IMG/VR virus record: IMGVR_UViG_3300009104_000011
Reading direction: 5' to 3' (one strand)
DNA length: 20,000 bases
Source: an uncultured virus (IMG/VR IMGVR_UViG_3300009104_000011)
Lineage: Duplodnaviria; Heunggongvirae; Uroviricota; Caudoviricetes
Shown here in pieces: positions 662-16,828 of this stretch. Numbering within the stretch: the stretch's first letter is position 1; each line of letters begins with the position of its first letter. The notes under the pieces were generated by a model, which was not told the origin of the DNA, did not search any database, and saw only the letters and a program-made list of their open reading frames with translations. Both the position numbers and the translations under genes were made by a program.

Positions 662-1390
662 ATGTTTGAAGACGACGGACCTGTGACTAGATATAAGAAT
701 GATAGAATAGTTATTCCTATATGGGGATTCTTACTAATATTCTTCGGCCCAGCCGTAGTTACTGTTACCTATCTATATCACTATTCGACAATGGAATACA
801 CAGCATCTGCGATAATAGCATTGGCTGTAATGAATGGTTCGATAAACACAGTAATTGCGTGGCTAACTATTCGTCTTGACGGACATTCTAATGACGCACT
901 AGAACACCTTGATACGATTATGGTCGCAATGGAAGAACTAGACGAAACAATGATCGAAGCAAACGAGATGGTTGAGAGTTTCACAACGGATTTGGACAGT
1001 GCTAAAGCACTATTCGATAAGGTTGGCGTGGACTTAGGAGCATTAGATTTGGAGCCAGTTGCTGAGGTTGTCGAGAAGTTGAAAGACAACAAGGATGAAC
1101 TAAACGAGATCCTAAATCACATGAAAGAGGTCGATGTAAAGCACTATATTGACCAAGCAAAGAGGATTGATTGGCAGTCATTGTTAGATTCTGTTGAGGA
1201 AATAATGGGCTTTATTCAATCTAAATCTGGCCCGATTCAAGTACCAAAACCATCTGTCTCCAATGTTGTTTTACCGAATGTCGGTGGTTCGGTGTTTGAT
1301 GAAGAAGAGGATGGCGATTTCTTTTCTGACAGCCTACAACTATCTCCACCAACAAGGGGACTGAGCCTTACGCCACCAAAGCGGCCCTAA
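662..1390 (+). CDS. Membrane protein: two N-terminal TM helices, long acidic coiled coil, Pro-rich/acidic tail
   Basis: Hydrophobic segments IVIPIWGFLLIFFGPAVVTVTYLY and ASAIIALAVMNGSINTVIAWLTI. SD GGGGTGA at 647-653. Start is either ATG 662 or TTG 659. Confidence 0.75.
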   Translation: MFEDDGPVTRYKNDRIVIPIWGFLLIFFGPAVVTVTYLYHYSTMEYTASAIIALAVMNGSINTVIAWLTIRLDGHSNDALEHLDTIMVAMEELDETMIEANEMVESFTTDLDSAKALFDKVGVDLGALDLEPVAEVVEKLKDNKDELNEILNHMKEVDVKHYIDQAKRIDWQSLLDSVEEIMGFIQSKSGPIQVPKPSVSNVVLPNVGGSVFDEEEDGDFFSDSLQLSPPTRGLSLTPPKRP

Positions 1391-1824
1391 CTAAGTTCTT
1401 CTAGTTCCTTGAAACGAATTTTGGTGAAAGGTGCCTCGCCTTGAGCGCACTGAATCTTTTCTGCTGACACTTTCACAATTTGATTATCGTCCAAAAAGGC
1501 CACTCCGGAACAACCATCCTTGACTAATTTGATCAAGTTATCAAGATCTGGCTTTTTCACGCGCCAAATACGCGGGCGAGGGGTTCGCTTTCGCTCTTGG
1601 CTCTTTGGTAACTTTATACCAAACTGAATTTGCAGCATAATTGGACCACTCAGGATATCAATATCTTGTTCCTTCATTGCTTGAGAAACGAAAAACCTAA
1701 CAGACTGCTTTCCGTCTTTGCTTTTTTTGGGATCGTATGCACGAGGAAACCCACCATGAGAACTAAATCTTGGTCTCCCTTGAGCAACCGGCTCGCCGGG
1801 TATGACGACAGTAATCTCCTTCAT
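1387..1824 (-). CDS. rusA: RusA-family endodeoxyribonuclease (Holliday junction resolvase)
   Basis: Family motifs GEPVAQGRPR, KPDLDNLIKLVKDG and LDDNQIV; 145 aa. Confidence 0.92.
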   Translation of the reverse strand: MKEITVVIPGEPVAQGRPRFSSHGGFPRAYDPKKSKDGKQSVRFFVSQAMKEQDIDILSGPIMLQIQFGIKLPKSQERKRTPRPRIWRVKKPDLDNLIKLVKDGCSGVAFLDDNQIVKVSAEKIQCAQGEAPFTKIRFKELEELS

Positions 1825-1897: not shown

Positions 1898-2596
1898 ATG
1901 GAAGAGGGCCAAGTCCTTCACATAAAGTACAAAGACCACGTTCCTATTCAGAAGCGATTTGAGAGCATCGTTCGCATAATCGTAGACATGATTGAGGATG
2001 GGATGCGCGATCAAGTAGTTAGGCAAAAAGCAATATCTATTGTAAATGCTGCCGGAGTTCGTGGTCACGACGAAGTTGGTGAAATACGCGCTATCACAAA
2101 GTGGGTACAGACACACATGGTTTATCGCAAAGAACCTGTAGGTGTAGAATATTTTCACACAGCCCGAAGGCTACTACGTGATATTGATAATGGCTCTTCC
2201 GCAGGGGATTGTGACGACTTTGTTATTCTCGGTGGATCGCTACTTGGTTCACTAGGTTATCCAGTAGGCGCACTAATCGTAGACTCGTCAGGTGATGGAA
2301 CTTTCAATCACGTTATGTTAGTGACAAAAACTTTCACTGCAACAAGAGAGTTTGGAGATAATTGGATACCTGTCGAGTTAATCTATCCAGAATTTGAATT
2401 AGGACAAAGTGTACCGGTTTCAAAGGTCTATCCGCTAATGGCCGATGCAAAATCAATACGCTCACCTGTAACACATAAGACAATAAGTGGTTTAGGTAAC
2501 GTACAAGTTACTAATTCCTTGAAGCCCGGTGTTAGAAGTAATCGTTTTAGAGAAATGTTATCGAAACACCCTTTGGCAAAATTATTTAGAAGGTGA
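1898..2596 (+). CDS. Transglutaminase-like (papain-fold) cysteine enzyme; candidate virion maturation protease or cross-linker
   Basis: AITKWVQTHMVYRKEP, then GDCDD (Cys105, 2210-2212), NHV (His138, 2309-2311) and WIPVE (Glu160, 2375-2377, where Asp is usual). Confidence 0.85.
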   Translation: MEEGQVLHIKYKDHVPIQKRFESIVRIIVDMIEDGMRDQVVRQKAISIVNAAGVRGHDEVGEIRAITKWVQTHMVYRKEPVGVEYFHTARRLLRDIDNGSSAGDCDDFVILGGSLLGSLGYPVGALIVDSSGDGTFNHVMLVTKTFTATREFGDNWIPVELIYPEFELGQSVPVSKVYPLMADAKSIRSPVTHKTISGLGNVQVTNSLKPGVRSNRFREMLSKHPLAKLFRR

Positions 2597-2768: not shown

Positions 2769-3212
2769 TTGACAATGCCAGCAATGAATATATCGCTACA
2801 ACGCAGAATTGGAAGGCTACCTAAAAGCCCAGATTACTTGGACAATGTACCGCCTTCAATTTTTGAATACAACCACCGTGGATTCGGAATGAGAACGCCT
2901 ACACCAACTTACAAAGGATTCTTCGGAATCGGTAAGCACAAGCAGGGTCATGCGGGTAACGAAAATGGGGATGGTATGTTGAGTGCAATTTATGGAAACG
3001 ACGGAACTCGTTCTCTTCCAGCACCGGGAATCTACGGCATTGGTAGCGCTCCCGGCGAAGAAACAGTTATGCCTGCAGCGACAGAGTACAAGCCGACTCA
3101 TTGGAATACCCCTGGCCTCTTTGGAATTCAGGACACAATAACTCAGAACTGGAAGCCGCTTGCGGCAGTATTGGTAATAGGATACGTCGCTAAGCAGAAG
3201 AAGTGGATCTGA
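2769..3212 (+). CDS. Gly/Pro-rich protein with C-terminal membrane anchor and repeated G-hydrophobic-G motifs
   Basis: RGFG, GFFGIG, AIYG, PGIYGIG and PGLFGI repeats; C-terminus LAAVLVIGYVAKQKKWI. ATG 2775 is an alternative start. Confidence 0.75.
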   Translation: MTMPAMNISLQRRIGRLPKSPDYLDNVPPSIFEYNHRGFGMRTPTPTYKGFFGIGKHKQGHAGNENGDGMLSAIYGNDGTRSLPAPGIYGIGSAPGEETVMPAATEYKPTHWNTPGLFGIQDTITQNWKPLAAVLVIGYVAKQKKWI

Positions 3213-3224
3213 GTAGTTGATGGT

Positions 3225-4115
3225 ATGCCAAGAAAGCGATCTTTTCTAGGAGACAATAGGTACCTTGTAGGTGGCCTAGCCCTCGGAGGCTTGTATCTTC
3301 TCACAAAAGGCGGTAGCGCTCTAGGTCCTGCTGCCGAGGCAATCAGCAGAAGGGCTAATCCAGATGATGAATCAGCAGCCGCGGGTGTGACTCCCGGACT
3401 ATTTTATTACATCAGCGAAGCAACAGAGTGGAATGATTACCAAATCATGAAGCCAGCAATTTCGCCTGACACACCAGAAATCATAATTCCTTACACCCAA
3501 AATGATGCAGTAATTCATCTAATGGCTCGCGGTATGCCGGAAAACGTATCTCAGTCAGAAGCACGAAAGATAATTGCAAGAGGATATCCTAGTATAGTAC
3601 ATAGACTAGAGGGAATATACAATAGAAGTAATATGACTGTAGGAGATAGAAAGGAAGTATATGCTCACTTAACACCTCTATACAATGTAATGGGAACACC
3701 AAATGGACAGAGAGTCCCTGCTCCCGGAGCAACTGTTGCAACAACCACACCTACAGCAGAGTCTGTTCAAGGTATGGCAGTTAGAAGAAACGTTGCTGGA
3801 AACTACAGTCCCGGATCAAATCTAATGGGACACCAGACAACAAATCGTGCCGGAAATAGAAGACTGCGTGCAATTAGCGGAATGAAGTCATGGACTAAAG
3901 ATCACACACGTCAGGTCTACGACCAAAGAAGAAATATTTCTGCAACAAGAGAAATGACACTCAGAAATATGAAAGCGGGTATGGATATTGATCTTTACAA
4001 ACCCGTAGAAACACTTGAGATTTTCAGTGAAGCACCACAGCGCAACACGCATGAAGTAGACAATGTCGGTAACGCACTCGTTAAAACGAGGGACTCCATG
4101 CGAAGGATGCTGTGA
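3225..4115 (+). CDS. Hypothetical protein with N-terminal membrane anchor and Arg-rich C-terminal half
   Basis: YLVGGLALGGLYLLT hydrophobic segment; RRANP at 3348-3362; tightly packed in the operon. Confidence 0.75.
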   Translation: MPRKRSFLGDNRYLVGGLALGGLYLLTKGGSALGPAAEAISRRANPDDESAAAGVTPGLFYYISEATEWNDYQIMKPAISPDTPEIIIPYTQNDAVIHLMARGMPENVSQSEARKIIARGYPSIVHRLEGIYNRSNMTVGDRKEVYAHLTPLYNVMGTPNGQRVPAPGATVATTTPTAESVQGMAVRRNVAGNYSPGSNLMGHQTTNRAGNRRLRAISGMKSWTKDHTRQVYDQRRNISATREMTLRNMKAGMDIDLYKPVETLEIFSEAPQRNTHEVDNVGNALVKTRDSMRRML

Positions 4116-4119
4116 TTGA

Positions 4120-7100
4120 ATGACTTTGCAAAGAAGACGCCGCCGCAATGCGGATATCTTTGACACTGGGCCTTTTGGTGCATACAATAACTTTGGATTC
4201 ATTGATGATGGCGGTGACAGCGGCGGTGGCGGCGGCAGCGACGGTGGCGGTAGTTCAAACTCAGAACAAATCAGATACCATAGCACCTACTGGTATTATG
4301 TTTTACCAGTTTACTCCACTGGAAGTCGACCATCCATTCTTCATTATGCGTGGACCGTATATGATGATGTCAATGATGTAGGGACTACAGACCCGCTTGC
4401 TAGTGGAACAGGAGTCACCGATGAGATGGCAGATGCGGCAGCAAAGTCAGCAATTGATACATTAAAAATCGAAGCAGAAGCAGCCGCAGCCGCTGCGGAA
4501 GGCTATATTATTTACTTAACATGGGCGGACGTCTATTACCATCACATGATTATGGGACAACTTACAACAGAGCAAGCAAAAGATATCCTAGCAAATCAAT
4601 TTAATATTAGCGGTGAGGGGCTTGCGCGATACCCTGGACAGTGGGGCTCAGGTATGGCGTATTACGACGAATCAACTTTCTTAGAGCAGTTTGAGGTCCA
4701 TGATAGGCAAGAAGAAGGAGAAATAGAAGAGTATGCTCCACAGATACCAGTTATTGATTACGAAGCAGGATCGTACCTATTACCAAATGTAGGTAATGCT
4801 ACGATGGCGGATCAGCCCATACCAACAAACACCGCATACAAGTATTGGGACGGCAATCTAAAGTCACACAATTGGGCAGACCACGGTATGTCTACGCCCG
4901 AAATGGGCGATGTAAAAGACGGTGGAAGGTATCCTAAACCAATAGTGGATTCGTACGGTGGATATGCTGTTTCATTGAGTCATTATATTGCATCTTATGA
5001 CCCCAATGGGGCGTTTTTAGGATTCAGGGTGCTGACCGCGTCAGAACTTGAGGGAGGAATACCGGCAGGAATCCCCATTGCGACAGTTATGCAAATGTTC
5101 ACCAAGTGCGCCAAGTCTAGAAATGGGCACGATTTCAAAAACAATGGTAGAAACTTCATGTTGGATACCGAAAAGGAACCAGTATGGAGAAAGGCATTAG
5201 ATATGCCTATGCAGCCAAAAAGTTTCTTCCTTTGCGAAACAGCATTTGCAAGAGGACGACCGATACCAAAACCAACAGGCGGTCGTGACAATCAGGTGAT
5301 CATTGAAGGTACACACGGGTTCAATAATGATGATTTGACCATAGCCTATGATACAGGGTATAATGACGTAAAATCTGTATTCGGTAATCTTGGTAGAGAA
5401 GACACTCTTAACAGAGAAGTATACGAAAAGGCAGGCGATGAAGCCACAGCAGAAGCAGGATTTAGTGGATTGGGCTTCAAGATGACCTGGTCACCTCCGT
5501 CCAAGGCTTCTGGATGGCGCAGTAAAGTATACTATGCTGCAAAGGTTGAGTGGCTCGGAGAAAATGGACAGTTTGGTGCTTATTCGACGCACCCAGAAAG
5601 TATACCCGACTGTGACTCAGAACAAGGGAAAACCATGGTTATCTACAGATTTCCAAGACAATTAGACCCTGTAGTAGATAAAAATCTACTAGACTTTTAC
5701 GCAGCAAATGGAATGCCAAACTATGATATAACTCATACTGGAAAGTGTTATCCATTCCCCGAAGTTCATACAATGTCCTCTGGAGATGTTTCCTCATACA
5801 CAGATGCTCGTGACACCAAATATGGGTTAATTGGAAGACTAATGCCAACTAATTCAGATGCAATAGATGCAGAAAAATATGAAGCAGAATACAATGGAGA
5901 AGTATATGCTGGCCGTAGAGTAATTAGTTTCTTACCAATGATATCACCGAGTCTACCACCATCAAATAGACACCGACCGTACATCTTGAATGGAGAAGAT
6001 CTTTGGCCACTTTATTCGGCTTCTATGCATTACAAGAAAACTGATTGGTTTTGTTTTGACACGGGTTTAATTACTGGGGCTGCAATATCTATTACAGACC
6101 CATATAAGAAAGCGTATCTCGGTAGTGGCAGAGTAACCAACGCTTACTTCCCAAAGGCTAATTTAGACGTTGGAAGTACTGCTTTCGCAGTCGGCCAATG
6201 TATGCTTGCTTACGACATGGAAAGCCCGTCTGTTGATGCTAGGTTAGGAGAAAACTTTCCTACTGTCAATTTGCCTCACTCGTCTGAGAGAATAATAATT
6301 ACTACAGAACCTGGGAAAATGGATAGTGCTGGAATGCCTTTCAGATCCAAAGAACTAGACCCGATCGGAAGAGTAGACGATGGTTCTATGGCTGGAAGTT
6401 CCAAGTCAGATTATCTATCACCTATTCAAGTAATCACTACACAGGATTTAGTCAATATGGAGGCTACGCCACCAATGCCTGAGCCGGTAGGAATGGCTGC
6501 AATTAGAGATGCATGGAAAAATACAATGGGAACAGAACTTACAGCAGCGTCATTTGCGGCACTTCCAAATATAGGCGCATTCGACAATCCAACAAAATAC
6601 GGTGTTAGAGACCCCAACAATCCATTAAATTACATCATAAATACAAACTATGGTACGTTTAGTTTTCCCTTCACAATAGCCATATTCCAAGTACCTTTGC
6701 ACCATAGAGGACCAGTTCTAAAATATAGCGACGAAGTTGATACGAATGGTAATCTTAAACCACTTGAGTCAAGTTCGGAAAAACCAGGATATATCGGAAC
6801 AAAGGATGTAAGGCTGGTCTATCAAAGTCCTTTCGGAGAAGTAAACAGTTCCATAATCAATCTCGATAGAAAAATACAGAGACAACTAGACACAGTAGAA
6901 TTAGATGAACATGGTAATCCGATAGAGGGCGAAGTTAGCGACTTGTTTGAAGAACAAACTCAAGAAGGTGGCATCGATGAAGGACAGTATACAGAAGACG
7001 AGCAAGAAATATTCACCGAAAGGCAGTTCAAGAACTGGATGTATGATAAACTCATGGAAGACTATGGCGATGTTAAATGGACAAGCACACCATTTAAGCA

Positions 7101-7689
7101 ACACTTCCATCTTTGGAATAAAGACTACGTTACAGGTAAGATGCTGTTAGAAAAATTCGGAACTGACCCCGATTTCAAACTACCCGGAGTAGATTACTCA
7201 GTATACGAAGCAAGAGCCTCGGAGTTAGGAATTCAAATGGTTTCACAAGTTACAGACGACGAGGCTCAAGATGACCAAGCGGCAAACATGTTAGGTCTTG
7301 GAGCGTTCACAAATTCACAAGGATTTACCGTAACAGACGTTACTGCAAAGTGGGGAACAATGGAAGCCGCTAATGCAAGATACACCGGAGATGTCGGGAT
7401 GTCCATGGTGCCTTATGAGGCAAATGTCAAAAACGAGCAACTCGGATATATGGCAATGAGCAACCTCAGCGGGCTTGGATATCCGGGTGAAGGCGTCATA
7501 GATGACGCTAAAGGATTCGCAGCAGATGTCACAATGGAAGCCGCAAAATGGTCTGGACTTGGAGTGGGACTTGGGCTTGGTGGAGCAGTTATGATTCTGG
7601 CTGGTGGTGTAGCAGTTGGTATAGCAGCAAAAGAAAGTGGAAAAGCCGTGTGGACAATACTTAACAAGAAGAGTCCAAACTCGATTTAA
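4120..7689 (+). CDS. Large (1189 aa) acidic protein with Gly-rich C-terminal TM anchor; possible spike/adhesin-like virion protein
   Basis: Long ORF with N-terminal RRRRR and a poly-Gly linker, an aromatic/Gly/Pro-rich core, and C-terminal GLGVGLGLGGAVMILAGGVAVGIAA. Function is inferred only. Confidence 0.8.
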   Translation: MTLQRRRRRNADIFDTGPFGAYNNFGFIDDGGDSGGGGGSDGGGSSNSEQIRYHSTYWYYVLPVYSTGSRPSILHYAWTVYDDVNDVGTTDPLASGTGVTDEMADAAAKSAIDTLKIEAEAAAAAAEGYIIYLTWADVYYHHMIMGQLTTEQAKDILANQFNISGEGLARYPGQWGSGMAYYDESTFLEQFEVHDRQEEGEIEEYAPQIPVIDYEAGSYLLPNVGNATMADQPIPTNTAYKYWDGNLKSHNWADHGMSTPEMGDVKDGGRYPKPIVDSYGGYAVSLSHYIASYDPNGAFLGFRVLTASELEGGIPAGIPIATVMQMFTKCAKSRNGHDFKNNGRNFMLDTEKEPVWRKALDMPMQPKSFFLCETAFARGRPIPKPTGGRDNQVIIEGTHGFNNDDLTIAYDTGYNDVKSVFGNLGREDTLNREVYEKAGDEATAEAGFSGLGFKMTWSPPSKASGWRSKVYYAAKVEWLGENGQFGAYSTHPESIPDCDSEQGKTMVIYRFPRQLDPVVDKNLLDFYAANGMPNYDITHTGKCYPFPEVHTMSSGDVSSYTDARDTKYGLIGRLMPTNSDAIDAEKYEAEYNGEVYAGRRVISFLPMISPSLPPSNRHRPYILNGEDLWPLYSASMHYKKTDWFCFDTGLITGAAISITDPYKKAYLGSGRVTNAYFPKANLDVGSTAFAVGQCMLAYDMESPSVDARLGENFPTVNLPHSSERIIITTEPGKMDSAGMPFRSKELDPIGRVDDGSMAGSSKSDYLSPIQVITTQDLVNMEATPPMPEPVGMAAIRDAWKNTMGTELTAASFAALPNIGAFDNPTKYGVRDPNNPLNYIINTNYGTFSFPFTIAIFQVPLHHRGPVLKYSDEVDTNGNLKPLESSSEKPGYIGTKDVRLVYQSPFGEVNSSIINLDRKIQRQLDTVELDEHGNPIEGEVSDLFEEQTQEGGIDEGQYTEDEQEIFTERQFKNWMYDKLMEDYGDVKWTSTPFKQHFHLWNKDYVTGKMLLEKFGTDPDFKLPGVDYSVYEARASELGIQMVSQVTDDEAQDDQAANMLGLGAFTNSQGFTVTDVTAKWGTMEAANARYTGDVGMSMVPYEANVKNEQLGYMAMSNLSGLGYPGEGVIDDAKGFAADVTMEAAKWSGLGVGLGLGGAVMILAGGVAVGIAAKESGKAVWTILNKKSPNSI
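4209..4251 (+). repeat. GGC/GGT low-complexity tract encoding a Gly/Ser linker (GGDSGGGGGSDGGG)
   Basis: Directly visible in the sequence. Confidence 0.7.
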
Positions 7690-7728: not shown

Positions 7729-9000
7729 ATGGCAGTCAGTCCTGACTTTGCAAATCGTTTGGTTTTTGAGTTCAAAGAGAAATCAGCCGAAATTATTGAT
7801 AGGTATAATCTGAGTCATCTTAGAGGAACAGAAAAGATGGATCCAGCCACAAAATTGGCTGCAGAGTTCATTAATCTTGCAAATCAAAGCACAACCAATC
7901 CAAGTGTGACAGAATCAATGCTCGCATCTGAGCAGAGAATGTATCTTAAGACACTTGAGCAAAAAGTCTTAGGAATTACCAAGAACCAAGCCAAGAGTCT
8001 AGATGGACTGCACGCACAGGCATTTGGGACTACTGTAGTTAGTGACGCAAATTGGGACAGGACTGTTTCATCCGTTGCAAAAGAAGTAGACCGAATTGCT
8101 GTCAAGAATAGCAGTTTGATTAACGCATTGACTAAGGAAGAGCAAAAGTACATGGATAACATGTTTGCAACTGTTGTAGAAACCGTCCGAGTAAAGCACG
8201 AAAGAGATCCTTCTGCGCAGAGTTCTATGGATGCAGAAAAGGCAGCATCTCAAGATCTTAGGACTGTGGAAAAGCAGTTAGAAAAGATGGCAACTGACTC
8301 GATTAAGAGAAGACAACACGAGATATACAGTGATTTTGATGAGCAGTTGAATAGGTATTTGCAATCGTTTAACGAGATGCGAAAAGCAATGAAGCCCGTG
8401 GAAGTTAAGAAAGCCAACAATCAAGTTGGTTTGATAAAGAAAATGATGCGAGAACTAAAGACAAATAAGCGACTAATGAGAGATCGAAATCTGCTACAGT
8501 CGCATATTGCAGCAATTCAAAATCAATTCAAAGTGCTAAACGAGATGGAAGGAGACATGTCAGAGACTGTATCCGCAGTTGCTGGTATATTCGGTTCAAC
8601 TGCCAGGCCAAGTAACAGAAGACACTTTTCTTTTGATGGATTTGGTGCAATGATAACCGCTGCGGAGATTGAAAGCAATCACCCAGAAACAAAGAATCCA
8701 GCGCACATTCGTTCTATGCAGTATTTCATGAATCAAGGTCTCACTTTTGACCAAGCACATGAAGCCTCAAAAGCCTATGGTTATGAGATGAATGATGGTG
8801 TGAGAAGCATGGACCTTGATTATAGAGTTAATTATTTGGGTCAAGCCACAGACTATACAGAAGACTCTCATACACTTAGAGAGTCTTCTTTTGGTAGAAA
8901 ACTGTTAAACGTGGGTGCGGGGACAGTAGGTGGAGGGATACTGTTGCTCGGAGGGGGTTTACTCGTTTTAATAGGTATATCAAGGGTGGGAAGTAAATGA
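7729..9000 (+). CDS. Coiled-coil protein with C-terminal Gly-rich TM anchor
   Basis: Helical K/E/Q-rich body; FDGFG motif; C-terminal VGAGTVGGGILLLGGGLLVLIGI; ATGA overlap with the next gene. Confidence 0.8.
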   Translation: MAVSPDFANRLVFEFKEKSAEIIDRYNLSHLRGTEKMDPATKLAAEFINLANQSTTNPSVTESMLASEQRMYLKTLEQKVLGITKNQAKSLDGLHAQAFGTTVVSDANWDRTVSSVAKEVDRIAVKNSSLINALTKEEQKYMDNMFATVVETVRVKHERDPSAQSSMDAEKAASQDLRTVEKQLEKMATDSIKRRQHEIYSDFDEQLNRYLQSFNEMRKAMKPVEVKKANNQVGLIKKMMRELKTNKRLMRDRNLLQSHIAAIQNQFKVLNEMEGDMSETVSAVAGIFGSTARPSNRRHFSFDGFGAMITAAEIESNHPETKNPAHIRSMQYFMNQGLTFDQAHEASKAYGYEMNDGVRSMDLDYRVNYLGQATDYTEDSHTLRESSFGRKLLNVGAGTVGGGILLLGGGLLVLIGISRVGSK

Positions 9001-11072
9001 ATTTCATCAGAACTAATGGAGAAGTCGTTCAAGTGAATGACAAGGACGTCAATACCCTTGAGAAGAACAAAGATTACACGCTCTACGGAGCAAGACACAA
9101 CCCAAGTGGTGAACAAATGGTATCAGTAGTTTACAATAACGACGCAGCGGCAGAGTATGCCGACAATGATGTGGGAGATTCGATAGCAGATCATCCCGAA
9201 GACCGAAGCATAAGAGGCAATCCAGGTAAGAAATTAACTTGGAGAAATCTGAGACTGCAATCAGCAATAGATGGTGAAGCAACTGTAAAGGGACGAGTAG
9301 GTACGGCAGTTGGTGCGCCTGAGAAACTACTACGATTTGCAGGGAGTGCAATCCTGTCTGGGGTAATAGCAAGCGATCAATCACTAAGAGACGACCCAAT
9401 GTTGGTTATTTCTACAGCAAAAGATTGGTACGCATACATCCAAAAAATGAATACCGTAGACATTGGTGCAGAATTTGCTGCCGGTGTTTCACACGCACAA
9501 CGTGCCTCTAACGCAATGTTCGCTCACGAGTGGGAGAACGATCCAGGCCACCACAATCTCTCAGGAAGACTTCTTCCGGGAGCAGATATTCAAGATGCAA
9601 TTGCAAAGGGACAAATTGCTTACGATGTATTAACTCGCGGCAGAGACATTCTCGCTCAACAGGGATACGGTGCAAACCAACAGGAAGTAATGCACAAGTT
9701 AGTTTTCGATATACTGCGCTCACTTCCAATCAGAACTTACAACTTTTACACACTCTTTAGACTCCATCCCGACGAAGGAAACGCAATCTACTCTGAGTTC
9801 CAGAGCCGATACATTCCTCTTGATACCGCTGAGGTAGAAATGGTTCTTGAGATGCAAAGAGCATTGGACTTGGAAGGAGACGCTTATGCTTTCCGAACAA
9901 CTGCTAATGAACAACAAGGAGTTCTTTCGGCAAGGCTCATGAGATCTGCTGTAGCAGATTATGCCGCAGGTGACACAGTATCAGTTAGAACAATCTTGAT
10001 GACACTGCAGGCACCACCTTACAATTACAGAGCAAGAGGCGTACAAATTGCTGCTGCTGGTGGTGACGCTAGTGCAGCCACCGGTCATGAAACAATCTAC
10101 ATGGAGTTCAAACTTGCTAACAACGAAATGGTAGAAACGGCTAGTCAGAACGTACAAGGAATCAAGAAACTGTCCAAGGACAAGATAGGTGGTTGGGCAA
10201 TTGGAGTTCAAGAACACCACATGGATGATAAAAACCAACTCCAAATCGCTAAAGACTACAAGGATAAGTACAAAACAGTACCTATCGCTCACAGTCAATA
10301 TGATCCAACCCCTGCCTACTTGGCAGTTAGATTCAAATCTACTGGAAAGAAGAAGAAAGGCAAAGGTGGAGACTCTTGGACACTTGTAAACTACGAGGAA
10401 GACTACTTGAGAGTAGGCAACCAGTCCGAAGCAGGTCGTTCTGCAAGAAACATTAGACAAGGTCTAGGTAGCGGTGGCGGCAGGCAAAGTTACGATAGAA
10501 GGCAGCGTGGCGGCCACCGAAGTGACTCAGACTGGGGTAAAGGCTCGCGCGATAGAGGTCGCAGAAATCCCAAAAAGAAAGCAAAGTCAAAGGGTGCAGG
10601 TAGAGGAAATTATCTCTTCGTAGAAATACACGATAAACGCCAAATTGACATGAAGCGACGAGAACCTGCAAAGGGAAAGCAAAAGGGAGAAACTCGACAC
10701 GGAACTGGTAAATCCAAGAAGGGACAGGGTTATTGGAGCCGTGGAGTAAGCAAACATTTACCTGCTGGACAAATGCTACAGATGGGTACTTTGAAGAAAA
10801 CCGGCGAAGAAGCACCGTTCCGAATAAGATTCCCTAGGTCACATTTTGCGACAGTTGCTCATCAATCATTGAAGCCAGGGCAAAAGACGCTGATTCCAAA
10901 GAAGAATAAGGCCAATAAAGAATTCGTAGAGGCGTATCAAGACTTCGTGGACTACTATGGGATGCCTGTTATGACTTCTTCAAGAGACACACAACCCCGC
11001 TTTGTTGTCCCGAAGGAAGCAAGACTCTCTTCGCCGTACTACCAAGAAGTACGAAAACAAATCGGCCAGTGA
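8997..11072 (+). CDS. Hypothetical 691-aa protein with strongly basic K/R/G-rich C-terminal third; candidate DNA-condensing core protein
   Basis: TGKKKKGKGG and RDRGRRNPKKKAKSKG tracts; RHNP, RGNP and RRNP motifs. Confidence 0.8.
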   Translation: MNFIRTNGEVVQVNDKDVNTLEKNKDYTLYGARHNPSGEQMVSVVYNNDAAAEYADNDVGDSIADHPEDRSIRGNPGKKLTWRNLRLQSAIDGEATVKGRVGTAVGAPEKLLRFAGSAILSGVIASDQSLRDDPMLVISTAKDWYAYIQKMNTVDIGAEFAAGVSHAQRASNAMFAHEWENDPGHHNLSGRLLPGADIQDAIAKGQIAYDVLTRGRDILAQQGYGANQQEVMHKLVFDILRSLPIRTYNFYTLFRLHPDEGNAIYSEFQSRYIPLDTAEVEMVLEMQRALDLEGDAYAFRTTANEQQGVLSARLMRSAVADYAAGDTVSVRTILMTLQAPPYNYRARGVQIAAAGGDASAATGHETIYMEFKLANNEMVETASQNVQGIKKLSKDKIGGWAIGVQEHHMDDKNQLQIAKDYKDKYKTVPIAHSQYDPTPAYLAVRFKSTGKKKKGKGGDSWTLVNYEEDYLRVGNQSEAGRSARNIRQGLGSGGGRQSYDRRQRGGHRSDSDWGKGSRDRGRRNPKKKAKSKGAGRGNYLFVEIHDKRQIDMKRREPAKGKQKGETRHGTGKSKKGQGYWSRGVSKHLPAGQMLQMGTLKKTGEEAPFRIRFPRSHFATVAHQSLKPGQKTLIPKKNKANKEFVEAYQDFVDYYGMPVMTSSRDTQPRFVVPKEARLSSPYYQEVRKQIGQ

Positions 11073-13546
11073 TTAGGATGAGAGTAAAGGTACCCAGAGA
11101 TCTTGCGGGAGGTTCTCTCCTTAATGCACATAGGTGGGTAAAGTCCACTATTGCAAGACAAAATCCAGGTGGTTCAACGTCTGATTACAAGATACAGGAA
11201 ACTAATGGAACACCAATTAGTTTGAGTGATTTGACTAGCAGAAACTTTGACGAAGTCTTAGTGATATCCGGAACAAGAAGTAACCCACCTGAACGCGGCG
11301 CACTTGCAGACAGAGCCGCAGAGCGCGGATTTATTGACGCAGACACTTCTAACTACCCAGTGGCTTCACCAGATTGGAGATACCCCAGTTATAGTGACAA
11401 TAATAGGATAGGTAATAACATAGCAAAACTACTACCTAAGGATATAGATGCTTCTATGCTAAATAGACTAGCAGCACAGAACGGTATGTTCAGCGCATTG
11501 AATACAACCACGAAGTTACTTTACACCGATGAAGGACATTTCTCAGATTCCGCAACCGACCCACAAGTCGCAGCACTATTGCAAACGTATGCTAACGCAC
11601 AGCAGAAACTACAACATCCGATTCTTTCCAACCCAGCGAGGACGTTCTTTGGTCCTGATATGAATGATGGATACAGGGGAGTTCTCTCGCCTGATGAAGC
11701 AGTCAAGGTATGGGCAGCAGATAAGTTCAAACTCGATAGCACCAGATTAGGACCAGTCCAATCCACACAATTAATGGATCGGGCCAGAATAATTAGAATG
11801 TACGATTTAGATAATTCAGAGAACCTTAACAATTTCATAGATCATGTTCTGACTCCGTATCTAGTAACGTCCATTGCAAACGCAAACTTGCTAAAGGCCA
11901 TGAGACACGGAGACTATCATCAAACCACAAAGGAGGCCCTAGGTAGATTCAAGGGAGATATGGAAGATACCCCACAGTGGAAGAAATTACTCGCAATGCT
12001 ACCAATGCACGCAAAGGACTTCTACGATGGAAAAGACTACGCTCTTATTGCTCACCCTGTCTTCCAAAGACGAAGCCTAGCAATTCAAGCAATGGATAAG
12101 AGACTCATCAAGCGAATAATGAAGATAGTCAAAGACCATCCAGATAACGCAAACGAAGCACTATCTCCAGGTGAAATCCGTCCCGGTTATAGATCTGCAG
12201 GAGTCGTAGGACTGATAGAGAGTCTTATGGTTCCAGAGAGAAGGGAGATAAACAACCTATTGATTGCTCAACAGCAGATACTGACAACAACAGATCCATC
12301 GGCGCATTTAGAACTTCTAAGAGAACTATACTTGGGTGACAGTAGAGATGAATCTATTGCTAACTCAGTTCGCGACATGGTTATTGGTGACAAAGTAAGT
12401 TACCAAAGAGATGTTGCAGGTTTCCGACCCACGCCTCCACCATACTGGCCTAAACCGGTTGTTCTTGCGGTAATGGATGCATTGAAGGAAAACATCCACG
12501 CTTTCATCGAACAAACAGATAGATTTGGAGTAGCCTTTAGACAACTAGCCAGTATACCTCATATGCCAGTGAATAGAGATCAGAGGATTACTTTCACTCT
12601 TGGAAATGAACAAGCCTCGATGTCACTAGACAGTCTAATCAATCTAAGGAATATTCTGGCACCTCTTTCACCCTCTGTGCTGATGGCTAGCGGTGGTGCG
12701 CAGGGAGTAGATAATCCGACTACTGGAAGGCTGGGTGCCGCGGTTGTAGTTGAAGAGCCAGGTAGACGCGAAATGGAATTTAGGTCGATAGGTATGTCAC
12801 CAAGACAGTCGAGTCCCCTATTCGGAGGGGGCGTATCTGATGATGAGAGAATACTACATTGGAACGATGTGCGTTTCATCATAGCGGCGTTCACTAAGAA
12901 CAGAAATTATTTCCGTGACGGGCTTATGCAGAAAGACGCAGCGGAGATACGGACACTCTTTGAACACATGATTCACAAGTATAGTCGGACAGAGTTTAAC
13001 GAACTTGCAGATGAGACACTTAACCTGCTTTCGATATTTATGGAAGTAGAGGAAACTGCCAGACACAAGTACAATTACGCTATGACCGAAAATGACAGAG
13101 CATTTGTGCTGTATCTTCTGAATAGACTTTTTGACACGATTCAAGTTCAACCCGAATGGGGAGACGGAAGTGGAGACGGCGGTCCGGGCGGAAGGTCTGA
13201 TGATGAAATAGTGAATATTTTGATGCACATGCAAGGACCAGATCAAGCAGTAAGTAATGATCAGATGAACCGTAGACTTCAATTTAATAGAAGGGTTACT
13301 GCGATATCTAACAGGCTTATTCGGGATTATGAAGCAGGCGGTATGGTTCCTCGCCCAACAGAAGTCAATAACATATTTGATGAATTACAACGTGATGTGG
13401 AACTAAGTGCATGGGGACGTAATTTAGTAGCGCACGAAAGAGCGAGAGTATTGAGAGAGATACAATATGATTATGCCCCTAATCAAGCAGTTGAAAGACA
13501 CCGCATGTATGCTGATATTGACGCTATTGGGCGTGATGATAGATGA
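11069..13546 (+). CDS. Hypothetical ~825-aa mainly helical protein
   Basis: Long ORF; GTG 11069 overlaps the upstream stop, and ATG 11078 is a likely alternative start. Contains RQNP, RSNP and LSNP motifs. Confidence 0.8.
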   Translation: MIRMRVKVPRDLAGGSLLNAHRWVKSTIARQNPGGSTSDYKIQETNGTPISLSDLTSRNFDEVLVISGTRSNPPERGALADRAAERGFIDADTSNYPVASPDWRYPSYSDNNRIGNNIAKLLPKDIDASMLNRLAAQNGMFSALNTTTKLLYTDEGHFSDSATDPQVAALLQTYANAQQKLQHPILSNPARTFFGPDMNDGYRGVLSPDEAVKVWAADKFKLDSTRLGPVQSTQLMDRARIIRMYDLDNSENLNNFIDHVLTPYLVTSIANANLLKAMRHGDYHQTTKEALGRFKGDMEDTPQWKKLLAMLPMHAKDFYDGKDYALIAHPVFQRRSLAIQAMDKRLIKRIMKIVKDHPDNANEALSPGEIRPGYRSAGVVGLIESLMVPERREINNLLIAQQQILTTTDPSAHLELLRELYLGDSRDESIANSVRDMVIGDKVSYQRDVAGFRPTPPPYWPKPVVLAVMDALKENIHAFIEQTDRFGVAFRQLASIPHMPVNRDQRITFTLGNEQASMSLDSLINLRNILAPLSPSVLMASGGAQGVDNPTTGRLGAAVVVEEPGRREMEFRSIGMSPRQSSPLFGGGVSDDERILHWNDVRFIIAAFTKNRNYFRDGLMQKDAAEIRTLFEHMIHKYSRTEFNELADETLNLLSIFMEVEETARHKYNYAMTENDRAFVLYLLNRLFDTIQVQPEWGDGSGDGGPGGRSDDEIVNILMHMQGPDQAVSNDQMNRRLQFNRRVTAISNRLIRDYEAGGMVPRPTEVNNIFDELQRDVELSAWGRNLVAHERARVLREIQYDYAPNQAVERHRMYADIDAIGRDDR

Positions 13547-14565
13547 CCATTAGCGACCAAGTAAATGAGATGGTGCAGGAACTCAGAGCGTGGAACGAAT
13601 CAGACAATCCTAAATTTCTTGGTGACCAACTTTATGACCCCCTTGGTTGGGAGGAATTGAGAGAAAGACAACTCGATATCAAAGTGGTAAATAAGGGAAT
13701 TTCAGACATTGCACCACACCTTGATGCTCAGGCATCATTTGTTCTAACTTCGCTAGACCAAGGCCTTGACAGTGTTAGAGTCGATATTCGCAGATTGTAC
13801 GCTGGTTTCCAAGAATTCGCAAAAGGAGAGGACCGTCCAATCAAGAATCTAAACACAATGACTGACTCTCAAAGAAAGACAAAAATGGCACGGTTAAGAG
13901 AAGATTATTTGTTTTTCTTTGCAGATGTTGCACAGAATTCAACGTCCTTATACACCAGTAAAGGATTGATACAGAACGCTATTGAGACATTACGAATGCA
14001 GAGTAAACTTGCTAACTCTGTAAATGCTCTAGGTGGCAAAATGGAGAACTCTGTAACCTATACTCAACTGGCTGATCGACTACAAGCACTCTATGATAAT
14101 GTGTCCAATCTCGGTATGGCTTTGCAAAAGTTACAAATGACAATTAAGAAAGTTAAAGATCCGCCAAGACAAAGGTATCCAAAAATGGATACGAAGCAGG
14201 GCGATAATCAGTTTGTGGATAAATTATACTATGATGTTTTGACTGAGTGGTTAAGAGTTCTCGCTCACTGTCACAAAGTCGAGAATTCAGTGCGTACAAT
14301 GAGTGCGCAGTTTGTAAAAGTAAAAGGACTGAAAGGAATGTCTAAAGATCGACATGGAATGGATACTCTGCCAGAAATTTTGGATAAATACAAGGCAATC
14401 AATAATGAGGCGAAAGCAACGTTCCCTAACTATCGACCAATGTTATTTGAGTCAAAAGTAAAGTTTGCCGAAGCAATGGACCATGCGACCAAAAGAAAAA
14501 GTAAGCGTCGGGCTCTTGTGAAAGCAAATCAGGAACTATTGTCGCGATTAGAAGAGATCTTCTAA
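13543..14565 (+). CDS. Hypothetical 340-aa helical/coiled-coil protein
   Basis: ATGA overlap with the upstream gene; heptad-like pattern; basic C-terminus. Confidence 0.8.
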   Translation: MTISDQVNEMVQELRAWNESDNPKFLGDQLYDPLGWEELRERQLDIKVVNKGISDIAPHLDAQASFVLTSLDQGLDSVRVDIRRLYAGFQEFAKGEDRPIKNLNTMTDSQRKTKMARLREDYLFFFADVAQNSTSLYTSKGLIQNAIETLRMQSKLANSVNALGGKMENSVTYTQLADRLQALYDNVSNLGMALQKLQMTIKKVKDPPRQRYPKMDTKQGDNQFVDKLYYDVLTEWLRVLAHCHKVENSVRTMSAQFVKVKGLKGMSKDRHGMDTLPEILDKYKAINNEAKATFPNYRPMLFESKVKFAEAMDHATKRKSKRRALVKANQELLSRLEEIF

Positions 14566-14574
14566 ACCAGTAGC

Positions 14575-14603
14575 CGTATAAACACCTACCCCTTGCGAAT
14601 AGC
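14575..14603 (+). promoter_or_regulatory. Candidate archaeal TATA box, leaderless transcript
   Basis: TATAAAC at 14577-14583, 27 nt upstream of GTG 14604. Confidence 0.55.
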
Positions 14604-16289
14604 GTGAGCAGCGCAGCATTTTGTGGTGATTGTGGAACTAGAGCCAATCCTAGTAGAGTCACGTGTTTTCAATGTGGTAGCAAATTGCCACATACTCATG
14701 TAAGAGAAAACCCGGCTTTATATGCAAAACTATCTAGAGAATTACCTCCTGCAGCAGTTTTCGATCTCGATATGACAATCTTTGATAACTCGCAGCGATT
14801 TAAGGATGCGCGGCGGGCAGGTTTGGTCGATAAAGAAGGAAAGGCTGTATCAAAAGGCATGATGAGTAAAGGCCAAGCATGGAGAAAGCGAAACAATTTC
14901 CTTTACAGTAAGAAGAATCTACGAAAGGACACAGTAATCCCTGGAGCAAAAGAACTAGTAAATGAACTAGCAAATGAAGGATATACTATAGTGTATCTAA
15001 CTGCTAGACCTAAAGAACACTATGAGGCTACTATAGAGCAACTAGAATATTTTGGATTCCCTCTCTTTAGAGACAACAAGGGAGAAACTCTTCTGATAAC
15101 GAAAGAGCAAAGGAATACCCAAGTTGGTGCATACAAAGGTAATGCGCTAAGAGAACTATCTGGAAATTACAAAGTGGAAATGTTCTTCGATGATGACCAT
15201 AGAGCACTAGAAGAAGCACTCAAATTGAAAATCCCCGGTGTGTATAGCACAGTAGACCAAAGAACAAACCCCGGTGCGGGTGACGTCCACATTGCAGAAG
15301 AAGACATTGAAAAAGCATATAGAATGATGCCAGATCCTGATGATGAAGATGATCGAACTGTTGGGGAGACGATGAATCCATCAGATACTGACGAATATCG
15401 TGAGGCAGCAGGTGCAATAGTGATGAACGAAGACAAAGTTTTGCTACTACGTAGGTCTGTAAAGGAAACCTCCCGACACGGTATGTGGGAACTTCCCGGA
15501 GGAAAACTTGAGGAAGGAGAGACTCCCGAAGATGCTGCTATTACTGAAACAAAGGAAGAAAGTGGTCTAGATGTTGTACTCGATAAAAAAGTCGGTGAAC
15601 ACGTTGATCACAATATGAACAAAGTCTATCACGCTTATATTGCAGAACCCACAAGTGTAGATCAAGAAGTTAAATTATCAGAAGAACATGACGAAAGCCA
15701 ATGGATGACTATTGAGGAAGCACTTGCTTTAGAGGAAGGAAAACTAAGCCATCATGCAAAGTTCTTCTTTGCAAAAATGAAGGTTCTTTCCAACCCAGCA
15801 AAGCGTGGTAAAGATTCCAAGGGACCTTACTACCGTTGGGGTGGTGGAAAGAAATACCATTACAAGGCTGGCAATAAGAAGTCAAGAGAAGCGGCAAGAA
15901 AGAAGGCTTACGGCCAAGCAAGAGCCGCATTTGCTGGTGGCTACAAAAAGAATCCAGCAAGTCCTAAGAAGGTAAAGAAAGCAGAGAAACTTTACAAGCA
16001 CATGAATGGCCAAGAACCAGAGAAGGTAAAAGTTGAGAATATAGATATTGGCAATGTCTGGTACAAGGTCGGAGAAGGTGGGTGTTGGCAGATTGGTTAT
16101 ATGTCTGGCAAAGAAACTGGTAAAGAAGAGCAGAAATATGTTCATACATTCAATGAGGAAACAAAAGATGGCAATTTCCCAGAACTCTATGCAACTATGC
16201 CCGACAAAGGTAAGCCTATGTTGATCATCAAAGGTGGTACTTGGAAGATTAAAACTGACGACAAGGGCGTTGCTTGGATATACGATTAG
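14604..16289 (+). CDS. Multidomain protein: Zn ribbon + HAD-superfamily phosphatase + Nudix hydrolase + basic module + C-terminal domain
   Basis: CGDC...CFQC zinc ribbon. HAD motifs DLDMT (14763), YLTAR, YK and FFDDD (15183). Nudix box GGKLEEGETPEDAAITETKEESGL (15498-15569). Confidence 0.88.
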   Translation: MSSAAFCGDCGTRANPSRVTCFQCGSKLPHTHVRENPALYAKLSRELPPAAVFDLDMTIFDNSQRFKDARRAGLVDKEGKAVSKGMMSKGQAWRKRNNFLYSKKNLRKDTVIPGAKELVNELANEGYTIVYLTARPKEHYEATIEQLEYFGFPLFRDNKGETLLITKEQRNTQVGAYKGNALRELSGNYKVEMFFDDDHRALEEALKLKIPGVYSTVDQRTNPGAGDVHIAEEDIEKAYRMMPDPDDEDDRTVGETMNPSDTDEYREAAGAIVMNEDKVLLLRRSVKETSRHGMWELPGGKLEEGETPEDAAITETKEESGLDVVLDKKVGEHVDHNMNKVYHAYIAEPTSVDQEVKLSEEHDESQWMTIEEALALEEGKLSHHAKFFFAKMKVLSNPAKRGKDSKGPYYRWGGGKKYHYKAGNKKSREAARKKAYGQARAAFAGGYKKNPASPKKVKKAEKLYKHMNGQEPEKVKVENIDIGNVWYKVGEGGCWQIGYMSGKETGKEEQKYVHTFNEETKDGNFPELYATMPDKGKPMLIIKGGTWKIKTDDKGVAWIYD

Positions 16290-16297
16290 GTGATTAA

Positions 16298-16597
16298 ATG
16301 CCACATAAATTTGGGATATCTGAACTCACTTGGACCTACATTGGTGTTGCATCTGCGACGCTACTTCTTATGACAACGTCAAAGACCGCAGCAAATACTA
16401 TAGGCAAAGAAGGAGTCTTTGGTTACGGGAAGAGTAAAAAACTTGCCTCACTTGGGAAGAGCAAGGAGAAAACCTGGGGTGATTTACAAAATGCTTCATT
16501 AGTGCTGCTCGCTCTGACTATGTTAGAGAGTAGCCACGACTCGATTCAAAGACTCACGAACGCTCGACAGGCAAGTAAATACAAGGATATATTTTAG
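16298..16597 (+). CDS. Small membrane protein (two hydrophobic segments)
   Basis: SD AGGTGA at 16288-16293; segments WTYIGVASATLLLM and ASLVLLALTML. Confidence 0.75.
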   Translation: MPHKFGISELTWTYIGVASATLLLMTTSKTAANTIGKEGVFGYGKSKKLASLGKSKEKTWGDLQNASLVLLALTMLESSHDSIQRLTNARQASKYKDIF

Positions 16598-16606
16598 GTG
16601 ATAATT

Positions 16607-16828
16607 ATGGCAGAAATTTGGAATCCATTTGACGCAGATAACCCAGTTTACAAAGATCTTGCAAAGCAAACTGCAATCAATAAAAACTACTGGAGAATAG
16701 CCGGAAGCATTGCATTGTTGATGTTTGTTGCAGATCAGGCAGGTAAGCGAGGTTGGGCAAAGAAAGCATCGAGAGCCACGGGGATAGGAGCATACAAAAA
16801 TAACCCCTATGGGATAATCCGCAAGTGA
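16607..16828 (+). CDS. Small single-TM basic protein (73 aa)
   Basis: SD AGGTGA at 16596-16601 favours ATG 16607 over the track's GTG 16598. Has TM IAGSIALLMFVA and three NP dipeptides. Confidence 0.75.
   Translation: MAEIWNPFDADNPVYKDLAKQTAINKNYWRIAGSIALLMFVADQAGKRGWAKKASRATGIGAYKNNPYGIIRK

Follow-up and report, generated by a model that had tools for sequence, protein, structure and literature searches.

The open reading frame (ORF) at 1898–2596 of a 20,000-nucleotide stretch of viral DNA (the window) encodes a transglutaminase-like enzyme that we regard as a candidate virion maturation protease for a short glycine motif, hydrophobic-x-G-hydrophobic(-G) (the G motif), a reading to which we give a probability of roughly 45%. 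The enzyme is probably a virus-encoded cysteine endopeptidase with predicted calcium dependence, and on our best reading of the comparative sequence data it would be a core morphogenesis gene of SSIP-1-like viruses, which are tailless, with an internal membrane and a single-jelly-roll capsid. The fold, the intact catalytic triad, the linkage to a capsid module and the sorting of two motif classes by membrane topology were computed directly. Features of the window are collected in Table 1.

Table 1. Genes, motifs and catalytic residues in the window
Feature	Position	Strand	Remarks
RusA resolvase, divergent from enzyme gene	1387..1824	-	Pfam E 2e-27
Transglutaminase-like Cys-His-Glu enzyme, SSIP-1 gp34 homolog	1898..2596	+	catalytic domain about residues 1-185
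D104-C105-D106, nucleophile and flanking acids	2207..2215	+	intein insertion point in 5 homologs
His138 of triad	2309..2311	+	121/121 close homologs; 129/130 aligned distant rows
Glu160, third triad residue by alignment	2375..2377	+	Asp in most distant relatives
ISGLG, the enzyme's own copy of hydrophobic-x-G-hydrophobic(-G), low-confidence linker	2483..2497	+
Basic C-terminal helical tail, probable membrane anchor	2543..2593	+	lacking in about half of distant homologs
52-aa membrane protein, [R/N/S/D][VMIL]G[SAD] variant ahead of C-terminal hydrophobic helix	2601..2759	+	fused to enzyme in P0033
Small protein, four conserved G motifs (RGFG, GFFGIG, GIYGIG, GLFG) and C-terminal hydrophobic helix	2775..3212	+
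Protein with N-terminal hydrophobic segment, conserved VQGM and ISGM	3225..4115	+	each in 25/38 homologs
1189-aa protein, G motifs (MLGLG, LSGLG) ahead of C-terminal membrane helix	4120..7689	+
Coiled-coil protein, LDGLH and FDGFG motifs, C-terminal membrane helix	7729..9000	+
Block of mostly soluble proteins with (R/K)xNP	8997..16828	+	10 versus 0.8 expected
Multi-domain cargo protein (Zn ribbon, HAD phosphatase, NUDIX)	14604..16289	+	NP 7-8 residues before each enzyme domain

The enzyme and its tail

The 232-residue product carries GDCDD at residue 103, NHV at 137, WIPVE at 156, ISGLG at 196 and RFREML at 216, and C105 is its only cysteine. A reading made from the sequence alone had proposed a transglutaminase fold with a Cys-His-Glu triad drawn from the first three of these motifs, and both proposals are borne out: none of C105, H138 and E160 varies among the 121 close homologs, and the best structural matches of an AlphaFold2 model (pLDDT 83.6, built on 102 sequences) are all transglutaminase-like. 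D104-C105-D106 is invariant throughout the alignment (102/102), its acidic residues flanking the catalytic cysteine at a predicted calcium site, as in BTLCP/LapG. Among aligned distant rows the cysteine is kept in 142 of 142, and we saw no inactivated copies. The third triad column, in the distant rows that cover it, holds Asp in 80, Glu in 38 and Asn in 1, with 40 gaps. A full triad is present in 115 rows, 38 of them with Glu, and 37 of these 38 fall in one weakly supported group of a quick tree (SH-aLRT 83); Glu marks one branch.

Confidence in the model is high across the domain and poor at residues 196–208, which contain ISGLG. C105 opens helix 105–118, H138 lies on strand 138–143 and E160 follows strand 156–159; the model thus reproduces the papain-like core layout of the transglutaminase-like superfamily, a helix-borne Cys followed by His and an acid on strands. 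Structural matches include 3kd4 (Z 13.1, rmsd 3.3, 149 aligned), TG3 (Z 10.7), LapG (9.2), PeiP (9.2) and PeiW (9.1), and PNGase and N-acetyltransferases are also among the fold relatives. No one activity stands out, the top 20 rows being of transglutaminase-like fold or relatives of it. By sequence, the enzyme scores under the Pfam cut-offs (Transglut_core 14.1 versus 23; C93 14.7 versus 27), whereas its relatives P0133, P0161 and P0230 clear the cut-off for Transglut_core (PF01841) at 36.8–38.6, and 44–74% of members of its Atlas neighbours at 0.95–0.96 carry PF01841. In PHROGs we found no family for the enzyme (P0001), and PDB sequence searches with A1, A4 and a BTLCP-like phage protein gave no matches. 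Five homologs (P0123, P0144, P0146, P0234 and P0246) have inteins at the catalytic Cys, which is the first residue after the intein; inteins typically occur in essential genes.

The earlier reading had also given the enzyme an ISGLG site of its own, a basic amphipathic tail and self-processing, and these claims survive in part. ISGLG is present at residue 196, but the exact pentapeptide recurs in only 19 of 121 close homologs; the hydrophobic-x-G-hydrophobic core is kept in 116 of the 121 tails, and the strict adenain pattern fits 24. In a count over 58 enzyme tails, 27 contain a G motif, against 6.6 expected. The tail is basic and is modelled as two short helices, but is only moderately amphipathic (11-residue moments of 0.15–0.59 across residues 213–232). 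It is very variable among homologs and often proves to be a fused neighbouring membrane protein, as in P0033, where it is a homolog of the protein encoded at 2601. Tails are absent from 55 of 113 full-domain distant enzymes and at 27 of 39 loci, 19 of which retain G-motif membrane proteins downstream. Because exact ISGLG is so restricted and so many distant enzymes are tailless, self-processing is dispensable, at most optional. The tails of P0041, P0043, P0078 and others have collagen repeats or other domains after the G motif.

Viral relatives and the capsid module

The enzyme gene had been placed at the head of a structural operon. It is indeed the first plus-strand gene after the divergent RusA gene, which is on the minus strand at 67 of 69 close loci, and every long ORF from 1898 onward lies on one strand, with a family match above cut-off only for the one at 14604. 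A single transcript, however, is unsupported, with no promoter signal above chance (4 versus 2.4 ± 1.3); the one RNA contig covers 3114–3367 only. Upstream, the products of 3–647 (Gln/Met-rich) and 659–1390 (a membrane-anchored coiled-coil protein) are conserved in the same place in close relatives, and SSIP-1 gp33 resembles the window's upstream protein in composition and position only. The strain in sequencing run X4 has 7 listed changes in the enzyme gene and, at 2915–3008 of the gene at 2775, a dense cluster of about 25 substitutions with a compensated frameshift.

Close relatives have the same gene order on viral contigs of 110–143 kb and also on numerous metagenome contigs, of which the 80 best among 307 confirmed were retained, and the sequencing runs that contain window DNA are marine. 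A complete, apparently tailless 140-kb relative (G002) encodes PolB, MCM, a small primase subunit, a thermosome, a HerA-like ATPase and a retropepsin-like protease. One enzyme homolog is labelled Euryarchaeota, and others occur in one Methanobacteriota-titled and one Flavobacteriales-titled assembly. We infer that the host is archaeal, probably Marine Group II; for the window virus, a large marine archaeal virus is the likeliest identity. The 140-kb virus (L008–L015) was not found in the available portions of published Poseidoniales virus accounts.

The many small anchored proteins suggest that the virion may have an internal membrane. No single-jelly-roll capsid gene was seen in the window; for the candidate in the 140-kb relative the model is a jelly roll whose matches are all weak (SPV1 capsid, Z 5.7, rmsd 4.6, 144 aligned; P23-77 VP16, E 0.11), and the SSIP-like capsid profile does not match it. 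That relative also has the HerA-like ATPase (DUF87 25.5 versus 23.2) and a weak match to the gp44 profile (E 0.0014), both absent from the window. The same genome has a divergent jelly-roll protein at 3204–4190 and an Arg/Lys-rich core-like protein from 139963 onward.

A search of 50,697 phage records gave one clear homolog of the enzyme, SSIP-1 gp34, which is annotated as structural and to which GenBank assigns no function. P0001 matches gp34 at E 0.02, P0233 at E 5e-9 and the family profile at E 6e-31, and the top BFVD match to the enzyme (E 4e-11) has 304 aa, just as gp34 does. The accessible parts of PMC4958249 and PMC6356626 place SSIP-1 among the membrane-containing vertical single-beta-barrel viruses. 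Its gp34 is a homolog of the window enzyme in both sequence and structure, the first annotated structural gene of its block, with a G motif (RGMG) between the domain and a C-terminal anchor; gp36, gp37, gp52 and gp53 also have G motifs, and both motif classes occur in neighbouring proteins, as in the window. The two enzymes differ in that gp34 has Asp at the third triad position and a true membrane helix, and they share 25% identity. SSIP-1 itself is a 44 kb bacterial phage, whereas the 110–143 kb relatives of the window have archaeal-type replication genes.

To follow the family further, we examined 80 of the 118 stretches that a pattern scan gave, and 45 encode the enzyme family; GC-rich viruses are over-represented in the distant enzyme set. 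At least 90% completeness was reached by 22 of 39 records checked, and in 19 of the 20 complete enzyme-bearing genomes fetched from among these, a profile partly seeded from these very loci found a gene like those for gp45 and gp46, the capsid proteins of SSIP-1. A search starting from the capsid, biased in that its profile was partly seeded from enzyme-bearing loci, covered 401 + 401 + 272 genomes and gave 10 new ones. In 9 of these 10 the provirus has the enzyme on the same contig, 4–16 kb from the capsid gene, and in the tenth the capsid gene is at the edge of a short contig. The enzyme is absent from P23-77, IN93, SH1 and 15 P23-77-like contigs (two of which are those isolates). It is carried across hosts, in records titled Acidobacteriaceae, Uabimicrobium, WOR-3 and Methanobacteriota and in Salisaeta. 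SSIP-1-like proviruses were located at G043:C1:3853821-3859628 and G454:C1:5898649-5903894 and in G308:C1 and G235:C2, in hosts comprising Uabimicrobium amorphum, others of its phylum and others of the phylum of the Acidobacteriaceae record. In total the enzyme profile matches 2716 clusters at 50% identity, 572 of them at E ≤ 1e-10, and the weaker ones may include cellular proteins. Weak matches (E 3e-5 to 9e-4) came from L005, L006, L108 and L110–L113, and those below 60 bits were excluded from the counts; L005 (tailed-phage-like), L006 (BTLCP-like) and L108 and L112 (cellular) have no structural context.

Two motif classes sorted by membrane topology

Two separate motif classes are real: the G motif on membrane proteins, and (R/K)xNP (the NP motif) before cargo-enzyme domains. 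Between 1898 and 9000 of the window, G[LIMF]G occurs 11 times against 3.7 expected, an excess that is marginal over the whole block (13 versus 7.2; 21 of 500 shuffles). Across 39 loci, 157 proteins encoded downstream of the enzyme are anchored C-terminally; 81 of them have G[LIMF]G outside the membrane helix, and flanking positions that were not selected for are enriched as well: L at -2 by 3.4-fold, R at -1 by 5.1-fold and D at +1 by 4.2-fold. The motif has no conserved Gln or Lys. Many copies lie 2–7 residues from the N-terminus or in tandem, a placement as compatible with docking as with cleavage. FSGLG at 448 of the 4120..7689 product is not conserved. The product of 2775..3212 is a candidate substrate or tether. 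A pVI-like amphipathic helix after the G motif was considered as a general rule and rejected (mean moment 0.40 versus 0.39, p 0.34).

The NP motif flags domain starts with a sharpness that the G motif shows for no feature. Of nine Pfam domains in three multi-domain proteins, eight have NP within the 20 residues ahead of them (1.6 expected) and none has it inside (9.5 expected); one of these proteins, a chain of 2208 aa, has guanylate kinase, Ham1, HD, DUF3140 and DUF5824 domains. Putative virion cargo polyproteins made up of enzymes that handle nucleotides (HAD, NUDIX, guanylate kinase, Ham1, HD) are encoded at 14604–16289 of the window and at 131318–137944 and 120396–123200 of the 140-kb genome. 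A small domain that has a His-rich motif and closes with G-I-x-G/N or W-I-x-D recurs by eye, often after NP, at 15964–16289 of the window, where the 14604 product ends, at the C-terminus of SSIP-1 gp43, and at L120 16512–17090 and L170 17366–17923. We rejected RxNP as a capsid N-terminal propeptide site; it stands there in G004, G006, G007 and G040, but the orthologs of G012/G017 have RLRNM.

The two classes also part by topology. Of 310 C-terminally anchored proteins in complete genomes, 80 have a five-residue G motif and 1 has at least two RxNP. The membrane protein preceding the capsid gene, which has a membrane helix in 39 of 40 cases, bears G motifs in its tail (45 versus 12.9) and NP in its head (35 versus 4.2), although NP heads are found in only 15 of 39 conserved copies. 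NP and G motifs sit on opposite sides of membrane segments.

Of the two, the G motif tracks the enzyme better than RxNP does, and the link is strong, not absolute. All 22 complete enzyme-bearing genomes have at least one anchored protein with a G motif, and enrichment reaches p ≤ 0.05 in 13 of them, SSIP-1 not included. RxNP is enriched in 9 of the 22 and at or below chance in 5 (G007, G033, G036, G038 and G041). The refuting case named by the sequence-only reading, related genomes with the motifs and no enzyme, occurs in part, since some enzyme-less P23-77-like viruses retain one or two GLG-type stretches. P23-77, IN93 and SH1 each have one anchored protein with G[LIMF]G, FGLG persists in VP22 homologs, and ILGGLG is found in some ORF18 homologs. 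Overall, G[LIMF]G is enriched in enzyme-less P23-77 (17 versus 8.5) and IN93 (12 versus 6.2), many copies being within membrane helices. The positional equivalents of the capsid-preceding membrane protein in P23-77, IN93 and SH1 have tails of 1, 1 and 6 residues, though the homology of VP15/VP12 to the tailed protein is weak (E 0.006–0.56). NP is present in VP15 of P23-77. The products at 2769 and 4120, named earlier as possible targets, appear plausible substrates; because the G class fits the enzyme better, the third, encoded at 14604, which has NP and no G motif, is doubtful and appears the less likely substrate.

A proposed maturation protease and its alternatives

The mechanism we propose would run as follows. 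The G motif would lie on the capsid-facing side of virion membrane proteins and, while the particle assembles, hold these proteins to the shell. The enzyme, kept on that side by its tail, or free where tailless, would cut at a glycine of the motif, and this cut would mature the particle or prime it, in the manner of adenain and of poxvirus A17 processing. Release of the enzyme's own tail would be a by-product, and (R/K)xNP would be a separate signal on the DNA side, for packaging or at junctions. The earlier proposal of a processing enzyme for one motif class gains support from the capsid-family linkage, the intact Cys and the structural annotation in SSIP-1, with cleavage itself predicted.

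Known systems offer partial parallels. In the portion of PMC13090378 available, DvhG requires D316/E318 and C317; D104-C105-D106 of the window enzyme matches D316/C317/E318, and our best reading is supported because of that match. LapG/DvhG (BTLCP, PF06035) also share the fold (Z 9.2), and their site-specific cleavage, which frees a membrane-tethered protein, is the mode proposed here. The window enzyme differs in its sub-threshold C93 score, its Cys-His-Glu triad and its viral structural context, and the LapG/DvhG substrate motif, [T/A/P]AAG, is unlike the G motif; no LapD-like gene was found among 16 window proteins scanned. Adenain and poxvirus A17/D13 serve as a works-like model. According to the parts of PMC4246237 and PMC8971458 that could be consulted, adenain, a Cys protease, cuts (M/I/L)XGX|G, a Gly motif with a hydrophobic residue four back, A17 processing releases the poxvirus scaffold, and precursor ends sit in capsomer cavities and are loosened by cleavage, as pVI is in the hexon cavity. 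ISGLG fits the first adenain rule, which also supports the best reading, and the family logo resembles the two rules, (M/I/L)XGX|G and (M/I/L)XGG|X. Adenain nevertheless belongs to a different family, its catalytic order being His54-Glu71-Cys122 as against Cys105-His138-Glu160, and no pVIc-like cofactor is known for the window enzyme. A Cys-His-Glu precedent within the transglutaminase-like fold is Bacillus cereus NAT3 (PDB 4DMO, per the entry title), an acetyltransferase that matches with Z 6.7 and 9% identity.

A strong rival holds that the G motif is a capsid-docking tag that is never cut. In one version the enzyme would instead be a cargo-polyprotein protease cutting (R/K)xNP junctions, a view we think unlikely. 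It draws on the sharp placement of NP before domains and on the scarcity of other viral proteases, the sole one found, retropepsin-like aspartic, being present in 1 of 25 genomes scanned by motif (the 140-kb virus) even though RxNP is enriched in 9 of the 22 complete enzyme-bearing genomes. Against it, RxNP fails to exceed chance in five of those 22, NP heads are often missing from the conserved membrane protein, P23-77, which has no such enzyme, keeps NP in its VP15, and the G class, found across the membrane from NP, is the one borne by the enzyme's tail. We rejected the retropepsin-like protease as a general RxNP cutter on the same 1-in-25 count, although the motif scan behind it may have overlooked divergent forms. 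It stands alone by the MCM region at 97175–97513 of G002 (L012:17175-17510, minus), with a similar gene in L003 at 2331–2684, and is possibly a second processing enzyme in the close-relative lineage only.

It is likewise improbable, in our estimate, that both motifs are uncut assembly or packaging tags and that the enzyme enters the virion through its G tag to act on a host target at entry or release, whether envelope peptide cross-links or a surface protein, or by deamidation. Fold relatives such as PeiW/PeiP, LapG, PNGase and N-acetyltransferases fit that role, some neighbouring membrane proteins resemble wall-binding or lytic proteins by eye, and GLG stretches persist in enzyme-less viruses. 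Against it, hosts whose envelopes differ greatly all retain the gene in their viruses, as they do not retain lysins, and many enzymes lack the tail at loci that still have G-motif membrane proteins downstream. PeiW and PeiP, the parallel first drawn, are virus-encoded and share the catalytic fold (Z 9.1–9.2), but the likeness stops at the fold: they have N-terminal pseudomurein-binding repeats, whereas a Pfam scan of the window enzyme (P0001), whose domain begins at residue 1, found neither these repeats nor any wall-binding domain, and it is the window enzyme that is linked to a capsid module in bacterial and archaeal viruses. Least probable, and in our view quite unlikely, is that the enzyme works as a transglutaminase, transpeptidase or acyltransferase, with cross-linking or lipidation of virion proteins at the motif as the outcome. 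Animal transglutaminases score Z 10.6–10.7 and the very short N-terminal leaders before some motifs could suit modification of a new N-terminal Gly, but TG2/TG3 scores are tied with those of PNGase and putative proteases and are thus uninformative on activity, GDCDD resembles the DvhG/LapG protease motif, and the G motif offers no conserved Gln or Lys. No result favours the isopeptide cross-linking once suggested for this enzyme.

The maturation-protease reading invites a wider one, which we put forward tentatively and at somewhat less than even odds: prokaryotic single-jelly-roll viruses may use a two-address code, with G motifs on capsid-side membrane proteins and (R/K)xNP on DNA-side cargo and enzyme polyproteins, together with a transglutaminase-fold maturation protease, an independent invention of adenovirus- and poxvirus-style maturation in a large, mostly undescribed class that would include marine archaeal viruses of about 140 kb. 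The literature searched gave no account of the enzyme or motifs in such viruses, and neither was found in the portions seen of PMC5894146, 10.1101/2025.08.03.668216, PMC8328091, PMC11706807, PMC11161782 or PMC12429598.

If the maturation-protease reading is true, the enzyme would supply prokaryotic viruses with motif-directed maturation from another protease family. In eukaryotic jelly-roll viruses, maturation directed by motifs and carried out by cysteine proteases is an established process (adenain, poxvirus I7 and Ulp1-like enzymes), and we know of no case in which it has been established for their tailless prokaryotic counterparts. The enzyme gene can be used as a marker of an under-described virus group, and SSIP-1 provides a cultured model for both motif classes.
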